Shown: positions 7,248 through 30,039 of the stretch, in pieces
Layout of the letters: each line of letters opens with the position of its first letter
How positions within the stretch are numbered: position 1 is the stretch's first letter
Virus record (IMG/VR): IMGVR_UViG_2778261667_000008
Coordinates: 1 to 44,055 of that record
Origin: a virus
Lineage: Duplodnaviria; Heunggongvirae; Uroviricota; Caudoviricetes
Strand: one strand, 5' to 3'
DNA: 44,055 nucleotides
The notes under the pieces: generated by a model
The model's database searches: none
What the model saw: only the letters and a program-made list of their open reading frames with translations
What the model was told of the DNA's origin: nothing
Translations under genes and position numbers: made by a program

Positions 7248-7696
7248 ATCGTATCCTGCTTCTGCTGCTCTTTACCCTGGGCGATGCTGGCTGCTTCTGC
7301 AAGGATCTGCCAGTACAACTCTGGATTCTGCCTAAGCAGCGCGATCCCTCGTTCTGGCGTATATTCCAGTGCAACCTCAACACCATTAACCAGTTCACCA
7401 ACCCCTTTCCAGTCTTTCAGCAGATAACGAGCGGCATTATCAATGAGTAAATCATCAACAGAATCCACCTCGGAAACCTTTGAAATATCAAACTCCTTCG
7501 TTCCGACGTGCAAACTGGCATCCATTTTCTCAATGTGGCGACGGATTAATGCATTACGGGAGCGATACTGATCGTTATCGCTGCTTGCCACCAACAGTTT
7601 TAACCCGTCTACAGGTTTTAAGTCCTTCATTGGCGTAAACCAGCGTTCTCCACCGATGATAATTTTCTGATTAAGAATAAACATCCATAACCTCAT
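7235..7696 (-). CDS. Tail assembly chaperone (G-like)
   Basis: 153 aa, acidic, between major tail protein and tape measure genes; ends at the slippery site. Confidence 0.65.
   Translation of the reverse strand: MRLWMFILNQKIIIGGERWFTPMKDLKPVDGLKLLVASSDNDQYRSRNALIRRHIEKMDASLHVGTKEFDISKVSEVDSVDDLLIDNAARYLLKDWKGVGELVNGVEVALEYTPERGIALLRQNPELYWQILAEAASIAQGKEQQKQDTIKKP
7241..7247 (-). promoter_or_regulatory. Programmed -1 ribosomal frameshift slippery heptamer A AAA AAG
   Basis: Minus-strand AAAAAAG located 2 codons before the stop of the 153-aa chaperone ORF; zero frame reads ATA AAA AAG CCA TAG. Confidence 0.6.
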
Positions 7697-7744
7697 TCAA
7701 TGCGTCCCCCTGTAGTGCAGTACCACAGGGGGAATAACGGAAAA

Positions 7745-8733: not shown

Positions 8734-9126
8734 CTAGAGCGCGCGATATGGAATTTGAAGATTAAGCTGGAACCAGCCATTCTTTTCGCCAACGGCTATT
8801 GAGGAAACAGCCTGGTAACTGAGACGATCGTCATCCTGAAACTCAAACAGTCCCCGCAATTTATCGGCTGTCTCAGTAATGAGTTTTGAACCAGAACCTG
8901 CGGGGACAAATAACTGAATAATGATTATCCCCGTGCGATAAACAATCGGCCCCGCGCCAATTTCATTAACTCCAGCCTGCCCGGGAATATTACTTAACCG
9001 CGCCCAGATTAACTTACCGGAAGGATCGAACGTTGGCGCGTTCGGATACAATACGTCTTTTCCATCAATAATCGTCTGTGCCGTCATTCTGGAAATAACC
9101 GTATTTCTGATTTCAGTAAATGTCAT
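8734..9126 (-). CDS. Tail terminator / minor tail protein (U-like position)
   Basis: 130 aa, position between head-tail joining genes and major tail gene. Confidence 0.45.
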   Translation of the reverse strand: MTFTEIRNTVISRMTAQTIIDGKDVLYPNAPTFDPSGKLIWARLSNIPGQAGVNEIGAGPIVYRTGIIIIQLFVPAGSGSKLITETADKLRGLFEFQDDDRLSYQAVSSIAVGEKNGWFQLNLQIPYRAL

Positions 9127-15116: not shown

Positions 15117-16424
15117 TTAAATCCGAAGTGATGTGACTCTTCCGGTCGGTTTGACAATAGGGAATTGCTTAACGATGAAATAACCTCCGGCATCATTCGG
15201 GTGATCATTGCCAGATTTTTTATCAGGCTCCCCCTTATCATCCCAGACCTGTTGCTCCAGAGATTCGGCATATACCGGACAACGCTTCACATTAACTTTA
15301 TAGCGACGCTCACCATTGGCATTGCAGAACATTGCATTCATTGAGTTAACGCGATCTTTTACTGGCGGGTTCGAGCTGTTCACCACAACGTTAAAACCTG
15401 CCTGCTTAAGCTGGGCTATATCCGTCGTACTTGCGTTACTTGATTTTCTGGAATCTCCGGAAGCATCTGGATAAATATAAATCTCCCTCACTTTCCGGTA
15501 ATCATTCCCGTCATACAGCCAGAAGCGTTCTTTAATGATGCGGATCATATCCGGCGTATCGTAAGCATTGATGATTTCAGTTACCGCACATGGAAGCCCC
15601 AAACGCAGCACATGGACGATCCCCGCCATCTTTCCAACGTTAAAATCCATCCCAATATAAATCGGCTCCCCTGGCTGCTCCACTTCTTCGCAATTATTCA
15701 GTTTCCGGTCAAACTGATGGTAAACAGTACCACTTGTCAGGTTAGTAAACTGTCCTCGAAGATAGGCTTTAATCAGCTCTGGAGGGTATGATTCAAGAAG
15801 CGAAGGAATGTAATCTGCTGGCAGGTTCTTTTCATTATCGAAAGTAGATGCCTGCACCAGACCATACAGTGAGGCCAGCTCTGTTTTTTCACGCACGGCT
15901 TTAACAAACTGCTCGTAGACAAATTTGAATCCTTCCGGCGTGGTTGTAACGTCAATACCGTTGCGAAGTCCATCAATCTTATAACGCATACGCGCAATTA
16001 TCTTGCGCCACGCCGTTCTGGCTTTTTCCTTCGGCAAAATGTCCAGTTCATCCACCAGCGCATTACCAATTTTGAAACCGACGATCGTTTGTGGCTTCTC
16101 CATCGATCTGCAGATAGTGGTTCCCCGATACTGGCGTCCGTAATAAAAGTGAACCTCTTTATTTCCCTCATTAATTTTTACGTTCAATCCCCAGTCAGCA
16201 GCAACTTCTTCCACTGTAGGGTAAAAAATATCGCGAATTTGGGGATACGTTGGCGCAAAATATCCCTGATTTATACCTGGATGCTCCCAAATCCCCTTGC
16301 ATATGCCGCCACACCCAACCCATGTTTTGCCCGAGCCAAAACCAGCAATATAGGCTTTAAATTTATGGGGCATTGAAAGAAATCGCGCCTGAGGCACATT
16401 AAGCGTCGGAGAGATCATCTTCAT
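15117..16424 (-). CDS. Terminase large subunit
   Basis: Walker A AGFGSGKT near the N-terminus, size ~435 aa, nuclease-type C-terminal half; track start 16427 is GTG, ATGs at 16424 and 16418. Confidence 0.8.
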   Translation of the reverse strand: MKMISPTLNVPQARFLSMPHKFKAYIAGFGSGKTWVGCGGICKGIWEHPGINQGYFAPTYPQIRDIFYPTVEEVAADWGLNVKINEGNKEVHFYYGRQYRGTTICRSMEKPQTIVGFKIGNALVDELDILPKEKARTAWRKIIARMRYKIDGLRNGIDVTTTPEGFKFVYEQFVKAVREKTELASLYGLVQASTFDNEKNLPADYIPSLLESYPPELIKAYLRGQFTNLTSGTVYHQFDRKLNNCEEVEQPGEPIYIGMDFNVGKMAGIVHVLRLGLPCAVTEIINAYDTPDMIRIIKERFWLYDGNDYRKVREIYIYPDASGDSRKSSNASTTDIAQLKQAGFNVVVNSSNPPVKDRVNSMNAMFCNANGERRYKVNVKRCPVYAESLEQQVWDDKGEPDKKSGNDHPNDAGGYFIVKQFPIVKPTGRVTSLRI

Positions 16425-19540: not shown

Positions 19541-20998
19541 TTAGGAGCGCCAAAAAAAACCTGAAAACAATATAATAACAGGATAAATTTCAAGGCGACC
19601 AAGAATCATAGCTATGCACATTAAATATTTTGCAATGTCATTAAGCACTCCGAATGACGATGCAGTAGCCCCAAAACCTAATCCCATATTATTAATACAT
19701 GCAGCCACTGTTGCAAATGATGTAAGAAAATCATATCCCATACCATTTAACACCAGTATAAAAAACACCGTGAAGAGAGTATAAAGAAAAAAGAAACTCC
19801 ATACAGACCTCATTACACGATCTGTAACTATCTTCCCTCCTACATTTACACTCAACAACGCTCTGGGATGAGAAAGTTGATTTATCTCGTGTTTGCTTTG
19901 TTTGAAAAGTATAAGAAATCGAAGTGACTTAATTCCACCACAGGTTGAACCGATACATCCCCCAAAGAAACTTGACAACAGCAAAAACACTATCGTGTGC
20001 GTGGGCCAGTTTGCATAATCCTGCGTAGCTAAACCATTATCAGTGAGCATGGAGCTGGCAAGAAAAAACGAATGAATAAAACTTCCATGCAAGTCATACA
20101 TACCTATATGCCAGACCTGGAAAGAGGTAACAATGATCACCCCTAAGGCTATTAATAGAAAGAAACGAAGTTCAATATCTCTGATTAAAGGTTTTATCGT
20201 TTTTCTGCTAATAACAATATACCAAAGAGTGAAGTTGAAAGCCGATAGCAGGGAAAAAGAACCAGCCACCAGCTCAACCAAATAGTTATTAAAATATCCG
20301 ATACTCTCGCTATGAGTTGAGAAACCACCAAGCGAAACTGTGGAAATCCCGTGACAAATAGCATCAAACAAAGGCATTCCTGCAAGTCTATAACAGACAA
20401 TACAAGCAATACCTAATAAAGAATAAGTTATCCACAGTGTCCGTGACGTATCGGCCAGGCGGGGAGTGAGTTTGTCATCCTTAAATGGCCCCGGCATTTC
20501 TGACTGATAAAGCTTTGCACCACCAATACCCAATAATGGCAATACTGCAACCGCCAGAACAATAACTCCTAAACCACCTATAAAATTTAACTGTGACCGA
20601 TAGTACAAATATGCCCGAGGTAATGAACTAACATCATCAATTACAGTTGCTCCTGTTGTTGTTATTCCAGAAACCCCTTCAAACAGAGCATCAATGAACG
20701 TTAAATTAAGTTCTGAGTCAATCCATAAAGGGAATGCACTAATAACAGAAAACAAAATCCAAAACATTACAATTATAATAAACCCATCACGGGTACGTAA
20801 TTGAATGCCAGATTTCTTAGTTGTATACCACGCTCCGCCACCAATGCAAAAAAATATAACGAAAGTTATAAAGAAAACGAACAGGCTTTTTTCTTTATAA
20901 AACAATGCTACAACCATTGGTGGCAACATTGAAAGACTATAGAGCCAAACCAGGAACCCACACATATGAGTAACAACTCTTACATGAGATGTATTCAT
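19541..20998 (-). CDS. trkG: TrkH/TrkG-family potassium uptake membrane protein
   Basis: Polytopic membrane protein; sequence from MNTSHVRVVTHMCGFLVWLYSLSM... matches my recollection of K-12 TrkG; first ATG at 20998 (the track start at 21016 is TTG); AT-rich gene. Confidence 0.9.
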   Translation of the reverse strand: MNTSHVRVVTHMCGFLVWLYSLSMLPPMVVALFYKEKSLFVFFITFVIFFCIGGGAWYTTKKSGIQLRTRDGFIIIVMFWILFSVISAFPLWIDSELNLTFIDALFEGVSGITTTGATVIDDVSSLPRAYLYYRSQLNFIGGLGVIVLAVAVLPLLGIGGAKLYQSEMPGPFKDDKLTPRLADTSRTLWITYSLLGIACIVCYRLAGMPLFDAICHGISTVSLGGFSTHSESIGYFNNYLVELVAGSFSLLSAFNFTLWYIVISRKTIKPLIRDIELRFFLLIALGVIIVTSFQVWHIGMYDLHGSFIHSFFLASSMLTDNGLATQDYANWPTHTIVFLLLSSFFGGCIGSTCGGIKSLRFLILFKQSKHEINQLSHPRALLSVNVGGKIVTDRVMRSVWSFFFLYTLFTVFFILVLNGMGYDFLTSFATVAACINNMGLGFGATASSFGVLNDIAKYLMCIAMILGRLEIYPVIILFSGFFWRS

Positions 20999-21135
20999 AT
21001 CTAAATATTCTTTCAATTATAACCACCTTGCTGCAATATTATGATTATACTGTATAAAATTTAACTCCTCTTAGATTTTACTTCACTGTTCCTTATGAAA
21101 CAATCATCAAAATGAATCATATTGTAGTTAAGATT

Positions 21136-21615
21136 TTACTTTAAACACTGTTCGGTTATGTATTGCTGAGCACCTTCAAGTTGGGCCTGCATCATTACCA
21201 GTCGTTCCCGGAGGGTGAAATAATCCCGTTCAGCGGTGTCTGCCAGTCTGGGGGAGACTGCATTATCCACGCTGGAGGTGGCGGTGGCTTCACGCACTGA
21301 CTGACAGACTGCTTTGATGCGCAACCGACGACGACCAGCGGCAACATCATCACGCAGAGCATCATTTTCAGCTTTCGCATCAGCTAACTCCTTCAGGTAT
21401 TTTGCATCGAGTGCAGCAACATCACGCTGGCGTATCTGCATGTCAGTAATGATTGCGGTCGCCTGGTTGAGTTTTTCCGTCACATTATCGCGTTGCGCTT
21501 TGTAGGTAATGGCATTATCACGGTAATGATTAACAGCCCATGACAGGCAGACGATGATGCAGATAACCAGAGCATAAATAATCACGGCAACTCTGCTCAC
21601 TGCTCTATCCCCCAA
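21136..21615 (-). CDS. rzpR: Rz-type i-spanin
   Basis: 159 aa, N-terminal TM segment, coiled-coil periplasmic domain; overlaps the endolysin 3' end and contains the embedded Rz1 frame. Confidence 0.75.
21195..21380 (-). CDS. rzoR: Rz1-type o-spanin lipoprotein (embedded in Rz in the +1 frame)
   Basis: 61 aa; lipobox LVVVGC, proline-rich PPPPPAW; matches my recollection of RzoR. Confidence 0.75.
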
Positions 21616-22130
21616 CAGGCTAATGCGCTCTCCTGATCACGACGAATAACCTGACCGTAACAGTTATTTGAACGAAGGCGGCAATCGCGCCCCCTGTCCT
21701 TAATCCACCAGCGAATCGCCTCGCAGGCACCTTTACGATCACCTGCATTCAGCCGCTTATAAAATGTCGACGGAAAACACTTAGCGGGGCCAATGTTATA
21801 GGGACAAAATGACGCGATACCCGCTTTTTGTGGTTCGGTCAGTGTTACTTTAATATTGCGATCCACCCATGCCAGCGCCTTATCACGCTCAATGGCATTA
21901 ACCTGATCGCATTTTTCCTTCGTCAGTGTCATGCCCGGAATAACAGGTTTACCATCTACTATCGTGGCACCGCGACAGATGGTCCATATGCCGGAACCAT
22001 CGCGGTATGCCGTAGTGTGGTTACCCTCTTTTTCATCCAGAAACTGGTCAAGTATCTCAGGAGCAGATGCGCCTGCTCCAATCAGCGCCAGAACGGCCGC
22101 TGACAGGCCGTATTTGGTTTTTGCGTTCAT
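21597..22130 (-). CDS. SAR-type endolysin (phage lysozyme, T4-lysozyme fold)
   Basis: 177 aa; N-terminal Gly/Ala-rich signal-anchor-release segment ([21 protein letters not shown]); phage-21 R-like. Confidence 0.8.
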
Positions 22131-22235
22131 GGATATTTATCAGGATTTATCGGTTTCTGAACCCTGGATATGTTTATCTGCCCCGGCCTGTTGAATCAGG
22201 CGGGGAAAAGGTAAATACAATCAAGAGGATTATTT

Positions 22236-22508
22236 ATGGACAATAACACCATTTCTCTACAGGAGTTGCTCGACTGCATTTCCAGGCTTCGGGATGATGT
22301 AAATGCCCTCACTGTTGCATTTTCATATCTGGCCTTATCAATTCCCAGAGAACAAATGCAACCAACACTGGCATCGCTCCTGCTTGAATCACGCAACCCC
22401 AAATGGTCCCAGGAACAACAAAATTCTTTTAAGTGGCTGGCGACATTACTGGAAGAAAAATATGCTGGTAAAATTACCATTTCGGTGGAGTCTTCAGAAA
22501 ATCAGTAA
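22236..22508 (+). CDS. Hypothetical 90-aa protein encoded antisense inside the lysis cassette
   Basis: ATG at 22236 with AAGAGG SD 7 nt upstream; its 3' end overlaps the 3' end of the 114-aa minus-strand gene by 35 nt. Confidence 0.4.
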   Translation: MDNNTISLQELLDCISRLRDDVNALTVAFSYLALSIPREQMQPTLASLLLESRNPKWSQEQQNSFKWLATLLEEKYAGKITISVESSENQ

Positions 22509-22818
22509 TTCTTCCTGGTAGCTTTCCTTTGTAGGTTATCCACACATTCTGCGCCTCTAAAATTACGGGGCGCTTTTCCGGCGACTGCTCATCCCCTTCA
22601 CATAACCCGGCAGCAACATCCAGGAAGACCTGTCTGATGCTCCTTCTGGCTGCAGCCTCATAAAACTCCAGCGCAGCACCTTCAACACGGTCCAGCGAGA
22701 TGTCCAGGTCAAAAATTTCACCGTCAAAGCGTTTTTTGTCTTGTAATGCTACAGTTACCGCAACTTTATTCTCAAAATTGCGGATCCCTTTCACAATCAG
22801 TTCATAGTCTTGGGTCAT
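22474..22818 (-). CDS. Hypothetical 114-aa protein translationally coupled to the holin gene
   Basis: ATG at 22818 preceded by GAGAGGAGAG SD, 4 nt after the holin stop; no family recognised. Confidence 0.55.
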   Translation of the reverse strand: MTQDYELIVKGIRNFENKVAVTVALQDKKRFDGEIFDLDISLDRVEGAALEFYEAAARRSIRQVFLDVAAGLCEGDEQSPEKRPVILEAQNVWITYKGKLPGRITDFLKTPPKW

Positions 22819-22822
22819 TATA

Positions 22823-23038
22823 TTACTCTCCTCTCGCAGCCTTTCTTCTGTCTTCTCTGATTTTGAAGTACAGATTTGTCAGATAAGTCAAAAAGCCCAG
22901 AACCAGACTTCCCAGCACACCAATTGCAGCCCACTGTGACGAACTGACCTGATCCAGCCACTGTAAAAACCAGTATCCAGCACTGCCTGCGGAGGTGCCG
23001 TAGGCAATGCCCGTTGTTAACTTGTCCATGGATTTCAT
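22823..23038 (-). CDS. Class II holin (phage 21 S / pinholin type) with dual-start motif
   Basis: 71 aa starting MKSMDK (Met1 and Met4 starts at 23038 and 23029), two TM segments, charged C-terminus; GGAGG SD. Confidence 0.85.
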
Positions 23039-23254: not shown

Positions 23255-23767
23255 ATGGAACTATTTTTGGTTGATCGCCGAGGAATATACTCAACTGGCG
23301 ATATTGTTACACCAAAGCGATTCTCCGATATAAGTCCTGTCGAAATGTCATCTCTGGTAGACAAACTTTTTCCGTGCGGGCTTGCACCACATGGCGAGGG
23401 ATACCTTATTAACAATGCGGCAAAAAATTATAATAAAAACGAATTCATCGACTGGGGGTTAGAGTTTTACCGAAGAGGAGTTTACCCGCAAAAACCTTCT
23501 CGCTATACGTCACTCTTCGCATGGGGTAACCTGGAGGAGGCTAAACATTTTCGACTTACAGACGGGAAACCATCAGATAAAATCTTCATAATACAAACAG
23601 ATAGTTATCATCGCGGAGATATGTCATTATTAAGAAATGATACATCAGTACTGGAATTCACCTACAGAATGGAACTTTACTGGGCAGGTAAAACCTTTAA
23701 CCCTGATCCAGTCTGGGAATACATTTGTCCGCTACCAGTAACTATCGGTGAACAAGTCCTTGCTTAA
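23255..23767 (+). CDS. Hypothetical 170-aa protein (moron between Q-like gene and lysis cassette)
   Basis: ATG at 23255 with GGAG SD; AT-rich; antisense to the late-operon direction; no family recognised. Confidence 0.55.
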   Translation: MELFLVDRRGIYSTGDIVTPKRFSDISPVEMSSLVDKLFPCGLAPHGEGYLINNAAKNYNKNEFIDWGLEFYRRGVYPQKPSRYTSLFAWGNLEEAKHFRLTDGKPSDKIFIIQTDSYHRGDMSLLRNDTSVLEFTYRMELYWAGKTFNPDPVWEYICPLPVTIGEQVLA

Positions 23768-24021
23768 TCCCCTTCATCCCAATAAAGACCTTTCGCGACA
23801 CAATGGGGGCGGTAAGGATAGCAATAACTTGCTCTGACGTTACCAACCAGCGTACCACTTTCTTTGAATGCCTTATCTCCGTTCCTGAGCTGTGATAAGG
23901 CCTTTTCAAGTTCAGCTATCGCGACAGCCACGTCTTCGCTTTCTACATACAGTGAAAAACCTTTAATGGGTGAACTCATGGTAAGTTGGCTCATAGATAT
24001 TTGATGATGGTGTGAGTGCAT
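23764..24021 (-). CDS. Hypothetical 85-aa protein
   Basis: Track ORF 23764..24066; the best start is the ATG at 24021 (MHSHHHQISM...) preceded by GGGAGA; its stop overlaps the stop of the convergent 170-aa gene. Confidence 0.4.
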   Translation of the reverse strand: MHSHHHQISMSQLTMSSPIKGFSLYVESEDVAVAIAELEKALSQLRNGDKAFKESGTLVGNVRASYCYPYRPHCVAKGLYWDEGD

Positions 24022-24410
24022 AAATAGTCTCCCAGTGAAAGAAAATTCGAGTTGTGCTGTTACCATATCAAGGATGCTACTTATTTCTATATGAAAACAA
24101 TAATAATCATTTAATATGCATAATTATAATTAGCCATCAAGCATTCAAGAAACCATCAAGATATTGATATAAATCACCACAAAACCAATATCGCCTCATA
24201 AAATACCTACGATTCTTTGTCTGTCGGAATCTTTTGTAAATCCTTGTTCTTCTCACCATGAATTTTCACGGGCTCCTCTTCCGGGGAGCTATTTTTTATC
24301 GTAAATAACCACTCATTACAGATGAATTGACCAAAATCAATATCCGTCACAGACATAGAGCAATAGAATTAATAACGTACGCGGTTACTTATATACTTCC
24401 TTTATTCACA

Positions 24411-24438
24411 AGCGACTCTTTAACGGGTCGCTTTTTTT
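24411..24438 (+). terminator. Intrinsic terminator-like hairpin
   Basis: AGCGAC-TCTTTAACGG-GTCGCT followed by TTTTTTT. Confidence 0.5.
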
Positions 24439-24566
24439 CGGACTATCACCGACACAATGTCAAAAAAAAGATCTGCATCACAAAAAAACTTATAAAAAAA
24501 TCACAAAATCCAAAACTCCACTACATAAACACTAATAAATATTGCTTCACATATTTTCATACTAGT

Positions 24567-24588
24567 GCCCTCGCAAGAGGGCTTTTTT
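24567..24588 (+). terminator. Intrinsic terminator-like hairpin
   Basis: GCCCTC-GCAA-GAGGGC followed by TTTTTT. Confidence 0.55.
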
Positions 24589-24728
24589 ATCTGGATGAAA
24601 AACAATCAACCATTAATAATGACATAGTAATATTGACTAAGGTCAAGGAAAAACAAATCATGACACCTAAAGATATAAGAGTTTTTCTGGAGGCGAATTT
24701 TAAAATGCATTAGATTTTACGGCTCTTT

Positions 24729-24755
24729 CACGGGCCGTTTTTTTGCCTGAAATTA
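24729..24755 (+). terminator. Intrinsic terminator-like hairpin
   Basis: ACGGC-TCTTTCACGG-GCCGT followed by TTTTTTT; loop nearly identical to the hairpin at 24411. Confidence 0.5.
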
Positions 24756-24864
24756 TGCCAGAAGCCGTGCTGCATCATCTCACCAACATCAACGTCTCCT
24801 CAGTCCTGAATTAAGACTACGTGGTGATTTTTAGCCTAAAATCCCTGCCAAATACTTTCTATAT

Positions 24865-24890
24865 AAACAAAAAACCGCCCGTCAAGGCGG
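24865..24890 (-). terminator. Intrinsic terminator downstream of the Q-like gene (second of two)
   Basis: Minus-strand CCGCC-TTGACG-GGCGG followed by TTTTTTGTTT. Confidence 0.6.
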
Positions 24891-25155
24891 TAAAAAGATG
24901 GTTAGCTAAAGAGGTCATTATTATTATGATCTGAGGCGTCGGGTGCCTCCCGAAGTATATCAGCTCCTGACTAATACACTGTGGCTTCCCTCCCGCTAAA
25001 CAGTTATACCTTGCCACCCCCGCCCTGGGGAACACCTCAAGATCCTTAACAGATTAAAATACAGCATTAATAATATAAGTGATCTACATCACATTATTTA
25101 GGCATAGAAATATGCATCAAAACAACAACAATATATCAACACTAATATCTCATTT

Positions 25156-25185
25156 CTTACAGATACAAAAAAACCACCTTTAGGT
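25156..25185. terminator. Bidirectional intrinsic terminator just downstream of the Q-like gene (candidate tR')
   Basis: ACCACC-TTTA-GGTGGT flanked by an A-run on one side and a T-run on the other, so it reads as stem plus U-tail on either strand. Confidence 0.6.
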
Positions 25186-25270
25186 GGTTTTTTTGTATCC
25201 GTGGGATTGTTCGCCTCGCGATACAGCTTTGCGAAGCATAGCGAAATTGAAGCAGTTTATACGTAAGAAA

Positions 25271-25933
25271 TCAAGCCATTTTCTCAGCAAATGATTCACG
25301 CATGGGAATATATAGGACATACTCAGCAACAGCTAACCAATTAGCAATCCGTTTTTCGCATGTGCTAAAACACCACTCTGGGTGTGCATCATGTAGCAAT
25401 TCAGCCATTTTACGCTTAGTCATCCCCCGCCCTTCATAGCGTTGCCGGAGAATGCAAATCAATCCTGGATGCTCTGCCAGCACCTCACTTATGACTCGAT
25501 CAATACATAACGCCTCTGCATCAGTACAATGCGCCAGCCAGCTCTTTTGCTTGCCGTTGATCATCTCTCTCAAAAACGCTTCCAGCTCAGCTTTCTCTAT
25601 TCCCGCTTTTTTCATTCTGCGCAGGGCTTCATTGATGGCTGTTTTCGTCAATTTTTGGGATGCCAACAACTGATTGAACATATTTCCTGACCTGCCACCG
25701 CCAATATACGACCAGCGCCCCCACATACGCAGTTTGCCCTGAATCCAGACACTTTCCAGCGTGGCGAGACGAAGGTGTTCTCCGCTTTTTCCTGTATTCG
25801 TTGGGTAAATCACAAATATCCCTCCTTTCTCCAGATTTCTTGTGTGCGAAAAACACCTTCTGCATGCATCAGGCGTAATTCTTCTTTGGTGTAATCGCTG
25901 GTTTTTACCCGCCCGTCGATTAGATCGTGGCAT
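25271..25933 (-). CDS. Putative late-gene antiterminator (Q-like by position)
   Basis: Last gene before two tandem terminators and about 2.2 kb upstream of the lysis cassette; Cys/His-containing. The track start at 25933 overlaps the upstream gene by 124 nt; alternative ATGs at 25726 and 25681 would give a 151- or 137-aa product. Family not recognised by eye. Confidence 0.45.
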   Translation of the reverse strand: MPRSNRRAGKNQRLHQRRITPDACRRCFSHTRNLEKGGIFVIYPTNTGKSGEHLRLATLESVWIQGKLRMWGRWSYIGGGRSGNMFNQLLASQKLTKTAINEALRRMKKAGIEKAELEAFLREMINGKQKSWLAHCTDAEALCIDRVISEVLAEHPGLICILRQRYEGRGMTKRKMAELLHDAHPEWCFSTCEKRIANWLAVAEYVLYIPMRESFAEKMA

Positions 25934-27324: not shown

Positions 27325-27955
27325 AGCCTGCTTCTCCTTGCCTTCCGGCGCGTAAGAGGCTAACCTACATGTGCAAAGCATGAAATTGGCCTCAGATTAA
27401 TGTTAAGCGTCTTGCCGGACGCGTAATGTTATCTGGGGCTTTTCTCTATCTGCCGTTGGTGTTCATGCCCGAGGCAGATAGCCTCAAGCACCCGCAGCAA
27501 TTCTACTTAACCCCCGTCACCTCGCCAATATAAAATCAATCAGAAAGGCGATCCATAAGAACAACAGCAAGACAATAAATTGCCATTACAGCCGCAATAG
27601 CTAGCGCACATTTGAGAACCAGCACGACAACCTCCTGTATTGGGCGTACACCAGTCCTGATAAATATGAGGATGTCTCGTCAGTGATTCAATGCAACTAT
27701 TGGGTATAGTTTCTGTGATTTTGTTCTGTAGAAATGGAACACAACAACCAGTCACCATCCGCTCTTCTTTAAATGCGCTAAGTCAGACACAAGCCAACAT
27801 TTTAGTTGGCTTTGAGCGTTCTGGAGATGCGACATTGCTAACAGCCTTTTGAATGAACTAATCGGGGGCTAGTCATAACGGGCATAGCAGTCTCCAAGTA
27901 AGCAAGACTTTGCCATACAGAATGGAGCTAAGTTATTCATCAAATCTCCTTAAAT

Positions 27956-28933
27956 TCATAAAGTTAAATGCGGCCCTAAATACGCCACATATATCCGCTG
28001 ATTTACTGCGTCAGCATAAAAATGTAGGCGGTAACCGTCAGGTAGTTTTACATGATTCTCGCAATAGACCTGCCGTCCATCATCTAACCAAAATATGCGC
28101 TCTTTCTTCTTTTTGGGGGCATTATTTACACTGTCCGATTCACCGCTAACTTCAGCAGCCAAACCCAAATCTCTTAAATATTCATGACGGTACTCTACAT
28201 ACTCACCTGAACGCCATTTCTCACTAAACGATTCCAACACATTTAGCGCATCTCGTGCCTTGAACAAGACATTTTGCCTAGCAGACCAACCTTGTAGACT
28301 TGTACCTATTTGATTTGACAACAAAGTGAGATGAGGAAACAAATCTGCTCTTTTCAGCCAGATATCCTTAGCAGTACTTAACAACGTATTACGATGTTGT
28401 TTGAGTTCATCTCCATGCACATCCAAGCTCGCAGAATTACTCAGATTTAAAATCGTTTCATCCCTTTGTTCTGGTATTGCATCAAGCTCGAAAACCCATA
28501 CTTTAAAATGGCTATTTGTCCAAGTAGCTAAAGCCGTAAAACTAGCAAGAAAAGTTTTAAAATAAAACGCTGCTAATAGCACCGCTTTACCTGTATCTTC
28601 CCCTGGCAAGCCAACTTCTAATACATCACCTAAAGTTTCAATATCCACGGTTTCAAAGAGAGGCTGTTTCGTTTCAAGAGACTTTAGAAATCGACACCAA
28701 TCCGCAAGTTCTGCAACTTTGCTCGCAGAGGCAAGCCAATTGCGCACAAAATATCCGTTAGCCAGCTCCAATCCCATTAGCGACTTGTCTTGATCTTCAT
28801 CGATGAGCAAAATTTTCAGCCCAGCAGTTCGGCAGACCTTAAGAACAGTAAAGAAAGCCAATAGTCCTTCATCTGCATCCTCTTTGCTAGCAAATGGCAA
28901 AGAATGATGGTTCAACACAATTCCATTACTCAT
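27956..28933 (-). CDS. Hypothetical 325-aa protein, third gene of the DUF262/ATPase operon
   Basis: ATG overlaps the stop of the upstream ATPase gene (ATGA); AT-rich; no domain recognised by eye. Confidence 0.7.
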   Translation of the reverse strand: MSNGIVLNHHSLPFASKEDADEGLLAFFTVLKVCRTAGLKILLIDEDQDKSLMGLELANGYFVRNWLASASKVAELADWCRFLKSLETKQPLFETVDIETLGDVLEVGLPGEDTGKAVLLAAFYFKTFLASFTALATWTNSHFKVWVFELDAIPEQRDETILNLSNSASLDVHGDELKQHRNTLLSTAKDIWLKRADLFPHLTLLSNQIGTSLQGWSARQNVLFKARDALNVLESFSEKWRSGEYVEYRHEYLRDLGLAAEVSGESDSVNNAPKKKKERIFWLDDGRQVYCENHVKLPDGYRLHFYADAVNQRIYVAYLGPHLTL

Positions 28934-30039
28934 AACAGATGATCCAACTCCTTATCCCATTGGTCAAAGAAGCCTTCCGGCCAACAGTCTATTCGTCCCT
29001 CATCATCAATATTGGGGTACATGACTTCTGAGGCGTGAATGGAGTTATGAACATCTCGCTGTAAGAAAAAGACTTTGACATCGTCAGCTGCAACCACTTT
29101 CTGCTTCACCGCAACCCGTATACCGTTGAGAAAATGATCAGAATGAGATTCAACGATTAATTGCACGCCATTATTCGCAGCAATGGAGCACAATTTACCC
29201 ATCAAGGATTGCCCAGCGGGATGCAAGTGTGATTCTGGGTTTTCAATAATCAGCAAATCACCTTTTGCCGCACTTAGTATACTGGTTACGACAGGTAACA
29301 CATAACTTAATCCAAACCCCACATTCTGTGGTTTAAAGTCTTCGGTGGTGTCTTTCCCTTGGTTAAAAGAGTAACTAAGACTCACCGAATTAAACTGAGG
29401 CTGCGCTACTGCTTTAATTTTTAACCCTGGCGTAATATCCGACATCCATGCTTCAATATTAGAAAGCAAAGTCCCTGAAACAGCCTTTTGATGGCGTAAC
29501 GCTTCTATTTCCAGGTCTTTAGCGCCATTAACCGCGATAAAATGAACTGCAAATTCGCCATGATGACCAAGTGATTTTAAATCACGGATATGAAACTCAG
29601 ACAACTGGTGATGGCTTTGTGGGCCTAACCTATCGGCACATAAATACTGAAAATTAGAGTTAAATAAGCTTAATAATTCTGAATCACCGTCAATACCAGA
29701 TTTACGCAGCGGCAGCAGATCTGAGTCATGTTGATAATCAAACTCAAACCGTGTTGGCTGTTCTTTCTCGAGCCATTTAATGGTAAAAATAATCTCTTCT
29801 TGTTCACTAAAACTAGAGAGCGCGTCTTTACCCGTACCGATATTGACATAATCACCATTTAACAGCAAACCCTTAGTTTTAAGGGTATTGCGTTCATAAG
29901 ACTGCCTTAAAAGCAATAAACTTTGCACAAGCGTTGATTTTCCCATGCCATTAAGGCCTGAGAACAGATTCAGATTACCCAGTGGAAAACTGGCATTTAA
30001 CAAGGTTTTAAAGTTTTGAATATTAATAAACTCAATCAT
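28930..30039 (-). CDS. AAA_21/ABC-type ATPase (OLD/AriA/PtuA-like ATPase architecture, no nuclease domain evident)
   Basis: Walker A GLNGMGKST near the N-terminus; LLIIENPESHLHP (DEPExxLHP-type Walker B/D-loop signature); C-terminal ...CWPEGFFDQW; start overlaps the upstream gene's stop by 8 nt. Confidence 0.8.
   Translation of the reverse strand: MIEFINIQNFKTLLNASFPLGNLNLFSGLNGMGKSTLVQSLLLLRQSYERNTLKTKGLLLNGDYVNIGTGKDALSSFSEQEEIIFTIKWLEKEQPTRFEFDYQHDSDLLPLRKSGIDGDSELLSLFNSNFQYLCADRLGPQSHHQLSEFHIRDLKSLGHHGEFAVHFIAVNGAKDLEIEALRHQKAVSGTLLSNIEAWMSDITPGLKIKAVAQPQFNSVSLSYSFNQGKDTTEDFKPQNVGFGLSYVLPVVTSILSAAKGDLLIIENPESHLHPAGQSLMGKLCSIAANNGVQLIVESHSDHFLNGIRVAVKQKVVAADDVKVFFLQRDVHNSIHASEVMYPNIDDEGRIDCWPEGFFDQWDKELDHLL

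Follow-up and report, generated by a model that had tools for sequence, protein, structure and literature searches.

The DNA analysed here is a stretch of 44,055 nucleotides (nt) from a virus of the class Caudoviricetes (IMG/VR record IMGVR_UViG_2778261667_000008, positions 1 to 44,055), hereafter called the window. It spans a complete Rac-like prophage, the site of which is ttcA and the late strand of which is the minus strand, and this prophage is 99.9% identical to a prophage of Escherichia coli KK19-02. Our subject is the interval between the holin and the endolysin gene of its lysis cassette, in which a late-strand gene of 114 amino acids (aa), ydfR, meets a 90-aa open reading frame (ORF) on the plus strand. 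The features of the cassette are listed below from the holin downwards, where E denotes the expectation value of a match and SAR stands for signal-anchor-release.

22823..23038, minus strand: phage-21-type class II (pin)holin of 71 aa with a Met1/Met4 dual start (PF04971, E 1e-34)
22474..22818, minus strand: ydfR-family gene (DUF1327) of 114 aa (PF07041, E 9.5e-44; phrog_406)
22551..22577, plus strand: terminator-like hairpin GCGCCUC-N9-GGGGCGC-UUUU, seen by folding, antisense within ydfR codons 80-88
22236..22508, plus strand: candidate moron cargo gene of 90 aa (phrog_2411, E 5e-57 over the full length; RefSeq WP_000369847.1)
22129..22235, plus strand: putative degenerate moron leader, which keeps the promoter-proximal half and has lost hairpin 2
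21597..22130, minus strand: SAR-type phage lysozyme (endolysin; PF00959, E 9e-24)
21136..21600, minus strand: Rz spanin, from the ORF list ('lysis protein' of RefSeq in near-identical genomes)
21195..21380, minus strand: Rz1 lipoprotein embedded in Rz, from the ORF list ('RzoD' of RefSeq in near-identical genomes)

Along the minus strand the order is thus holin, ydfR, endolysin, Rz with the embedded Rz1, and trkG. The ydfR gene starts 4 nt past the holin stop codon with GAGGAG ahead of it, is translationally coupled to the holin, and ends 343 nt before the lysozyme start. The plus-strand ORF is convergent with ydfR, the two 3′-ends sharing 35 nt (22474..22508), and its Shine–Dalgarno sequence (SD), AAGAGGA, lies 7 nt upstream of the start codon. 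The endolysin has a hydrophobic, SAR-like, Gly/Ala-rich N-terminus with a hydropathy maximum KD(19) of 1.67 (1.72 for the holin), and inspection of the sequence before its start, CCUGAUAAAUAUCC, revealed no purine-rich SD. An earlier first-pass annotation of the window had described the lysis cassette as interrupted at this place, and its coordinates, the 4-nt spacing, the SDs, the convergence, the 35-nt overlap and the SD-less endolysin start were all confirmed. RefSeq annotates ydfR and the plus-strand ORF alike, and 1,129 out of 5,426 complete E. coli genomes contain the two as a block; hence the arrangement is not due to chance.

The plus frame is uninterrupted in 7 of 7 diverged copies, with pairwise ratios of nonsynonymous to synonymous substitution rates (dN/dS) of 0.1-0.4. 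The first-pass annotation had stated that the interval carries no minus-strand gene, which is not correct to the letter, as a minus-strand ORF of 94 aa is present at 22196..22480. This ORF shares its wobble positions with the plus-strand ORF, of which it is a shadow, and its dN/dS is equally low, so that dN/dS is unable to choose the coding strand; we assigned the plus strand from stop codon counts, the minus frame having 1-3 stops in the copies L005-L008. The inability of dN/dS to separate the two frames is also what could be said for a plus-strand ORF that is no gene at all, only a chance or shadow frame in a spacer. Such a reading is hardly credible to us, given that the plus frame alone is open in every diverged copy, that the PHROG profile matches over the full length, and that an SD stands at the correct distance in every context of the family. 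Moreover, the 90-aa frame is preserved at identities down to ∼75% in 65 protein clusters, which come from Escherichia, Shigella, E. albertii and E. ruysiae; a Citrobacter homologue with 60% identity lies in a different lysis cassette, and an exhaustive profile search of 1.84 billion representatives found 20 relatives only, all of them enterobacterial and the distant ones at <50% identity. Judged from these alignments, the plus-strand ORF is a real gene under purifying selection. Its predicted product is acidic (isoelectric point 4.6) and soluble, with a maximum KD(19) of 0.93 and no membrane-spanning stretch, and the AlphaFold (AF2) model, with a confidence score (pLDDT) of 81.6, consists of helices 8-34, 38-52 and 59-77 and a disordered tail. 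The family profile gave no match among Protein Data Bank (PDB) sequences, a literature search for the accession numbers and the PHROG identifier of the ORF returned nothing, and a paper on the LF82 prophage transcriptome has nothing on the gene.

DNA of this ORF occurs at ∼1,350 places in 1,221 of the 5,426 E. coli genomes; 1,129 of the 1,221 have it adjoining ydfR exactly as in the window. Compared with related phages it is extra DNA. Phage vB_EcoM-606R7 has holin, ydfR and lysozyme with a 63-nt spacer and without the plus-strand ORF, the ∼290 nt which it does not have beginning with the last three codons of ydfR and ending 58 nt short of the lysozyme start, and in the Qin prophage ydfR overlaps the lysozyme gene rrrQ, with no spacer. 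The content of guanine and cytosine (GC) is 41% in the leader and upstream region and 42.9% in the ORF, as against 50.9% in the lysozyme gene, 47.7% in ydfR and 48.1% in the holin gene. A copy linked to iha (L007) in an island rich in insertion sequences is homologous to the window at 22095..22575 only, and the homology stops just past the hairpin. Diverged copies are carried by ∼72 IncF plasmids, downstream of an autotransporter; in phage phiSTEC1575-Stx2k (L022) the ORF is ahead of a different set of holin and M15 endolysin, and in Citrobacter a lambda-S-type holin and a CHAP endolysin lie downstream of it. Among the homologues with <50% identity, that of Atlantibacter (L010) is antisense in the interval of tail genes M and L, that of Klebsiella (L014) antisense upstream of terminase, and others occupy chromosomal sites, one of which is between dinI and bssS. 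Comparison of these loci shows that the element around the plus-strand ORF is mobile and antisense-placed.

Some details of these loci were noted in passing. At 22093..22111 of the window, within the first lysozyme codons, the plus strand has a terminator-like hairpin with a T run, which coincides with the start of the homology to the iha-linked copy. In L022 (1285..3303), an S21 holin, ydfR and the antisense ORF are followed by an unrelated lysis set, which comprises a pair of holin-like genes together with an M15 peptidase, so that this Stx2k phage has two holin systems in tandem. The homologue in the dinI/bssS interval (L019, 4001..4279; 92 aa, E 2e-5) is chromosomal and lies downstream of rne and pyrC, and another homologue (L016) is located in a non-phage region of Sodalis ligni.

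The first-pass annotation had also proposed a regulator of lysis timing at this locus, and nothing was found that links either of the two soluble proteins to holin timing. Most of the E. coli copies and the Citrobacter copy do reside in lysis cassettes, as would be expected of an antiholin-like or endolysin-regulating protein. The 90-aa gene is on the strand opposite to the lysis genes, hence not co-transcribed with them, and its product is acidic and far less hydrophobic than the holin; tail operons, plasmids, the region upstream of terminase and a site next to dinI all harbour homologues, and in phiSTEC1575-Stx2k the ORF precedes an unrelated lysis set. We therefore consider a role of the 90-aa protein as a lysis-timing factor very unlikely.

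Upstream of three distant homologues we found a common motif, AGGRATGGCTGATTAMCT, which forms the loop of a hairpin whose arms covary, and IMG/VR was scanned with this motif as an 18-mer, which gave at least 120 contigs (loci L023-L141). The motif belongs to a leader of ∼140 nt, present in >120 viral contigs, in which a terminator facing the late strand is followed by a CTGAT-N5-ATCAG palindrome, a -10-like TWAWGGT and TCAGCCCG, and then by hairpin 1, hairpin 2 bearing the motif with its invariant GGAUGGCUGAUUA loop, AAGGAA and the ATG. This leader is found in HK022 (AF069308, 13980..14129) ahead of gene 23 ('srb'; 'moron gene product' in the annotation), which is antisense between genes I and J and convergent with gene 22, and in ES18 (AY736146, 18095..18234) upstream of gene 25 ('possible moron'), which is antisense between M and L, convergent with gene 24 and equipped with annotated terminators. 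It is also present in HK633, mEp213, mEp043, SPN3UB and others.

An nhmmer profile was built solely from leaders of the viral scan (75 viral leaders, among the matches listed), and its top match in the window is at 22129..22176 (E 5.6e-4), directly upstream of the plus-strand ORF; matches occur at the equivalent place in L001, L002, L004, L008 and L022. In the Citrobacter copy the leader is matched both by nhmmer (E 1e-12) and by a covariance model (E 1.6e-8). The promoter-proximal half of the leader (…ATCAGGRT…AACCCTGGTTAWGGT…TCAGCCCG) is present in the window, and its -10-like TATGTT (22169..22174) is the aligned counterpart of TATGGT/TAAGGT, which is conserved in the canonical leader; an alternative -10-like TACAAT stands at 22216. 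Collinear with the nhmmer match, the covariance model matches 22175..22226 (11.2 bits), which includes the putative hairpin 1 at 22181..22205, CCCCGGCCUG-UUGAAU-CAGGCGGGG, with a fold z of -3.1, and this hairpin covaries in the copy from enterotoxigenic E. coli (L008). The AAGAGGA at 22223..22229, now the SD, is the SD-like 5′ arm of hairpin 2 and runs straight into the start region; the window leader is also without the upstream late-strand terminator and the CTGAT-N5-ATCAG palindrome. At the other end of the unit, the terminator-like hairpin has a 7-bp GC-rich stem 43 nt past the ORF stop codon, a perfect stem in L007, and the same position as the terminators 3′ of HK022 gene 23, ES18 gene 25 and other cargos; it was overlooked by the terminator scanner because of its 9-nt loop. 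In addition, the spacer of the 606R7 type aligns with the first part of the leader, through the 5′ arm of hairpin 1, and thus looks like a scar or emptied cassette, not like a site that was never occupied. Qin is the leaderless state.

Based on the lower GC content, the terminator-like hairpin and the leader homologous to annotated HK022 and ES18 morons, we assign the plus-strand unit to the morons, and the interval between holin and endolysin is probably composed of an ordinary ydfR and a ∼450-bp antisense moron of the HK022 gp23/ES18 gp25 type. Like those genes, the window ORF is small (class 70-100 aa), lies antisense between two late genes, meets a small late-strand ORF at the 3′-ends and has a hairpin terminator past its stop codon; the leader is homologous, and it is canonical in the Citrobacter, Atlantibacter and Klebsiella homologues. 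In contrast to them, the site is a lysis cassette (the ydfR/endolysin junction) and not a tail operon, neither BLAST nor hhalign relates the cargo to gp23 or gp25, and the leader is degenerate. The best reading of the plus-strand ORF, on the evidence of sequence, is thus a worn member of the HK022/ES18 moron type at the ydfR/endolysin junction. According to the definition of Juhala et al. (2000), in the wording quoted in PMC3594210, a moron is an independent small gene in or beside the late operon which is expressed from the prophage. The window has the extra DNA relative to related phages, the deviating base composition and, weakly, the terminator of its own, and the promoter is one that we infer. 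Accordingly, of the moron with its own antisense promoter that the first-pass annotation had listed among its possibilities, the moron is supported by GC content, terminator and leader homology, and the promoter stays at the level of inference.

Several observations weigh against this reading and keep it short of certainty. The covariance-model match in the window is not significant by itself (E 0.68), hairpin 2 with the GGAUGGCUGAUUA loop is lost from the leader, and no strong sigma-70 promoter, i.e. no site with at least 9 of 12 consensus matches, lies upstream of the ORF. The terminator is weak, with four U residues only, and the same hairpin occurs in ydfR genes without the ORF. The 90-aa protein has no match in Pfam, NCBIfam or PADLOC, and its model no match with E <3 among PDB folds, which leaves its function unconstrained. 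Lastly, ∼92% of the E. coli copies of the ORF are beside ydfR, and this may reflect a functional link instead of common descent.

Such a link would be expected if ydfR and the plus-strand ORF were a two-gene module, either toxin/antitoxin-like or a regulator and its target, with expression coupled by the convergent overlap; the first-pass annotation had likewise thought of a toxin/antitoxin-like pair. Apart from the frequent adjacency in E. coli, it is in line with this idea that small convergent partners recur with other members (Citrobacter, 238 aa; Atlantibacter, 71 aa; ES18 gp24; HK022 gp22), and that the tails of the partners are alike (...ITGSLKTPP, ...ITGSLRVP, ...GDLKKPP). The similar tails are accounted for by late-strand ORFs that run into the conserved 3′ region of the cassette and read it antisense, and the partners were rejected as YdfR homologues, hhalign giving a probability of 0.8% for the Citrobacter and 6% for the Atlantibacter protein. 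The pair is not obligate: ydfR, with ∼8,600 places against ∼1,350 for the ORF, is mostly without it, and the ORF family stays intact without ydfR on plasmids, beside iha, in tail operons and at chromosomal loci. No toxin–antitoxin or defence profile of Pfam, NCBIfam or PADLOC matched, DUF1327 being the sole match. A two-gene module is thus a quite improbable alternative to the moron.

The 114-aa protein itself is a regular member of its family. It scores 148 bits against PF07041, above the gathering cut-off of 25, and its RefSeq match is WP_000189896.1, 'YdfR family protein'. DNA of ydfR is present in ∼4,350 of the 5,426 complete E. coli genomes (in K-12 as part of Qin), and the holin-ydfR junction in 3,617; S21-type holin-like DNA was found at 15,537 places in 5,161 of these genomes, and ∼55% of the S21-type holin copies in E. 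coli carry ydfR. The gene is an ordinary, optional companion of S21-type lysis cassettes. The module that the first-pass annotation believed to be inserted into the lysis operon is therefore extra DNA as regards the plus-strand ORF, by comparison with 606R7 and Qin, and not as regards the 114-aa gene, which is a standard YdfR/DUF1327 companion; of the two observations that it expected to speak against an insertion, a standard 114-aa gene and an unconserved or unexpressed plus-strand ORF, the first was made, and the ORF is conserved. Taken together, known kinds account for most of what was found at the locus, ydfR being a passenger gene and the plus-strand unit a moron.

YdfR is soluble, with a maximum KD(19) of 0.84 and no membrane-spanning stretch. 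Its AF2 model is moderately confident for residues 1-70 only, where it has three strands and a helix; a fold search with the model gave no informative match, and the family profile gave none among PDB sequences. The core comprises about residues 1-78, and the C-terminal tail, residues 79-114, differs between phages; its coding region is antisense to the 3′ region of the moron. Forms of 114, 116, 176 and 183 aa exist, which diverge past ...LKTPP. The continuations observed there are KW, ESQP or EF directly followed by the stop, or a coiled-coil-like extension of 60-70 aa in the 176- and 183-aa forms (P0096, P0122), and the C-terminal end (22474..22584, minus strand) appears to be a recombination junction. 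Functional data are confined to recent work on Qin YdfR, which is reported to bind the catalytic, N-terminal half of RNase E in two-hybrid and pull-down experiments and to co-purify with RNA (PMC13232886). The ydfR gene is a late gene whose translation is in tandem with that of the pinholin, and its product probably acts on RNA metabolism at a late stage of infection and not on the envelope.

Compared with essD(essQ)-ydfR-rrrQ-rzpQ of Qin in K-12/C600, the window has the same succession of S21-type holin, 4 nt, DUF1327 gene, lysozyme and spanin, whereas ydfR of Qin has 103 aa, overlaps the lysozyme start and ends in a different C-terminal tail, and Qin is without spacer, leader and plus-strand gene. 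The cassette also resembles that of phage 21 (S21 pinholin, R21 SAR endolysin, Rz/Rz1) in its PF04971 holin with dual start, its endolysin with a hydrophobic N-terminus and its embedded spanins, and differs in the two extra genes between holin and endolysin. With the morons bor of lambda and gp15 of HK97 the 90-aa gene has in common that it is a small independent gene placed in or beside the late operon; Bor and gp15 reside in the envelope and their phenotypes are known, unlike that of the predicted cytoplasmic protein of the window.

The leader was then considered as a structure of its own, using 60 non-redundant leaders among the matches listed, 500 shuffles and slid controls. Hairpin 1 is paired in 97.9%, and six of its eight pairs have changed on both sides, with pair states such as AU 37/CG 17/UA 3/GC 2 and GC 39/AU 19. 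None of the 500 shuffles reached any of the observed measures, and slid controls were 30-50% paired, compared with 88% observed. One pair is mostly U·G (35 of 60) and another AU 24/GU 22; these would be C·A mismatches on the opposite strand, which indicates that the leader RNA is made on the strand of the ORF. The inner pairs of hairpin 2 are set by the search pattern and hence uninformative, and its outer pairs covary weakly. The homology and the structure of the leader are, at the level of sequence, well established by these comparisons. An Rfam scan of the region and of ten leader loci revealed no relevant family, and strings of the leader sequence are absent from the searchable literature; no description was found, which does not by itself demonstrate novelty, and the leader may be new.

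Behind the leader stand at least 129 small ORFs, mostly of 60-100 aa, in at least 27 families that are unrelated by BLAST, and hhalign relates only one of these cargo families, a P0070-type cluster, to the window protein. Descent of all cargos from one hyper-diverged family was rejected on present evidence for this reason. Of 80 non-redundant contexts among the matches listed, 74 have their flanking ORFs of at least 120 aa on the opposite strand; tail L leads among the late genes beside the leader, again among the matches listed, ahead of J, tape measure, holin, and M or tube. Three other identities of the leader were tried and discarded: its palindrome as a LexA box (CTG-N9-CAG is one base short of LexA spacing), a sigma-54 promoter (the GG/GC spacing is wrong), and a leader peptide ATG-GCT-GAT-TAA (not kept in a constant frame relative to the main ORF). 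Within the window, two more weak matches are probably due to chance, one upstream of ydaY (7651..7739, minus strand; covariance model 11.5 bits, E 0.56) and one inside the tail-terminator gene (8827..8876, minus strand; nhmmer E 0.018).

Tentatively, and with somewhat less than even confidence, we suggest that the leader is an undescribed cis-acting RNA element of enterobacterial lambdoid prophages, which would serve both for control and as a recombination handle for diverse antisense small proteins expressed in lysogeny. The arms of hairpin 2 around the GGAUGGCUGAUUA loop would then mimic a pair of SD and anti-SD, and regulation would perhaps occur via recognition of GGA in the manner of CsrA or via a phage factor. 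Homologous recombination in the leader would swap cargo between late-operon junctions, the window gene would be one worn cassette, and the 'empty' ydfR-endolysin spacers would be scars. If the leader is a true shared regulatory element, it offers one experimental handle on when and why prophages express small accessory proteins.

The antisense placement could also suggest that the plus unit acts mainly as an antisense RNA, which pairs with the late S-ydfR-R mRNA, either in the lysogen or soon after induction, and damps or delays the endolysin, its protein being secondary. The unit is indeed antisense to the late transcript and immediately upstream of the SD-less endolysin start, the sister cassettes are antisense to their neighbours in the proportion given above, and the canonical leader includes a terminator that faces the late strand. 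A merely secondary protein is at odds with purifying selection on it, with a frame kept down to 60% identity; moreover, homologues are kept on plasmids and at chromosomal sites without a late operon to regulate, and the cargos of different cassettes are unrelated, so that there is no common RNA target. Hence we regard a mainly antisense function as unlikely, whereas an antisense effect might still be added to the role of the protein.

Returning to the moron, its parts would be a leader with a promoter-like region and a 5′ hairpin, the 90-aa ORF, and a hairpin-U4 terminator inside the tail of ydfR. It would probably be transcribed on its own from the repressed prophage, i.e. expressed in lysogeny, and yield a small cytoplasmic three-helix protein, which may act by binding a host or phage partner. 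In view of the varied cargo of the sister cassettes, the likeliest arena is a phage–phage or phage–host conflict. After induction, Q-modified late transcription would read through the moron from the other side. The gene occupies a place where interference with transcription of the lysis genes could occur, and its product is a conserved yet unstudied protein in a fifth of complete E. coli genomes, on many IncF plasmids and in iha-bearing islands.

Other loci of the window are mentioned for completeness. The trkG gene (19541..21016, minus strand), for a potassium transporter, has a GC content of 38% and lies directly 3′ of the spanin genes as in K-12 Rac; it is cargo on the same strand and ends the lysis cassette. 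Between the Q-like antiterminator gene and the holin, a 170-aa gene (23255..23767, plus strand; phrog_5663, hypothetical in RefSeq, GC 41%) is antisense and has no match in Pfam or PADLOC; situated in the late leader region, it appears to be moron-like as well. The following ∼1.5 kb downstream of the Q-like gene (23768..25271) has no annotated gene and is probably the pR′/tR′ late leader, with a sub-threshold Rfam match to STnc100 (24865..25065, minus strand; 25.7 bits) and a structured cluster at 25130..25250. Finally, RefSeq annotates in KK19-02 a large gene for a P-loop nucleoside triphosphatase at a position that corresponds approximately to 27379..29829 (plus strand) of the window; it is opposite in strand to the neighbouring early genes and may be a defence gene.

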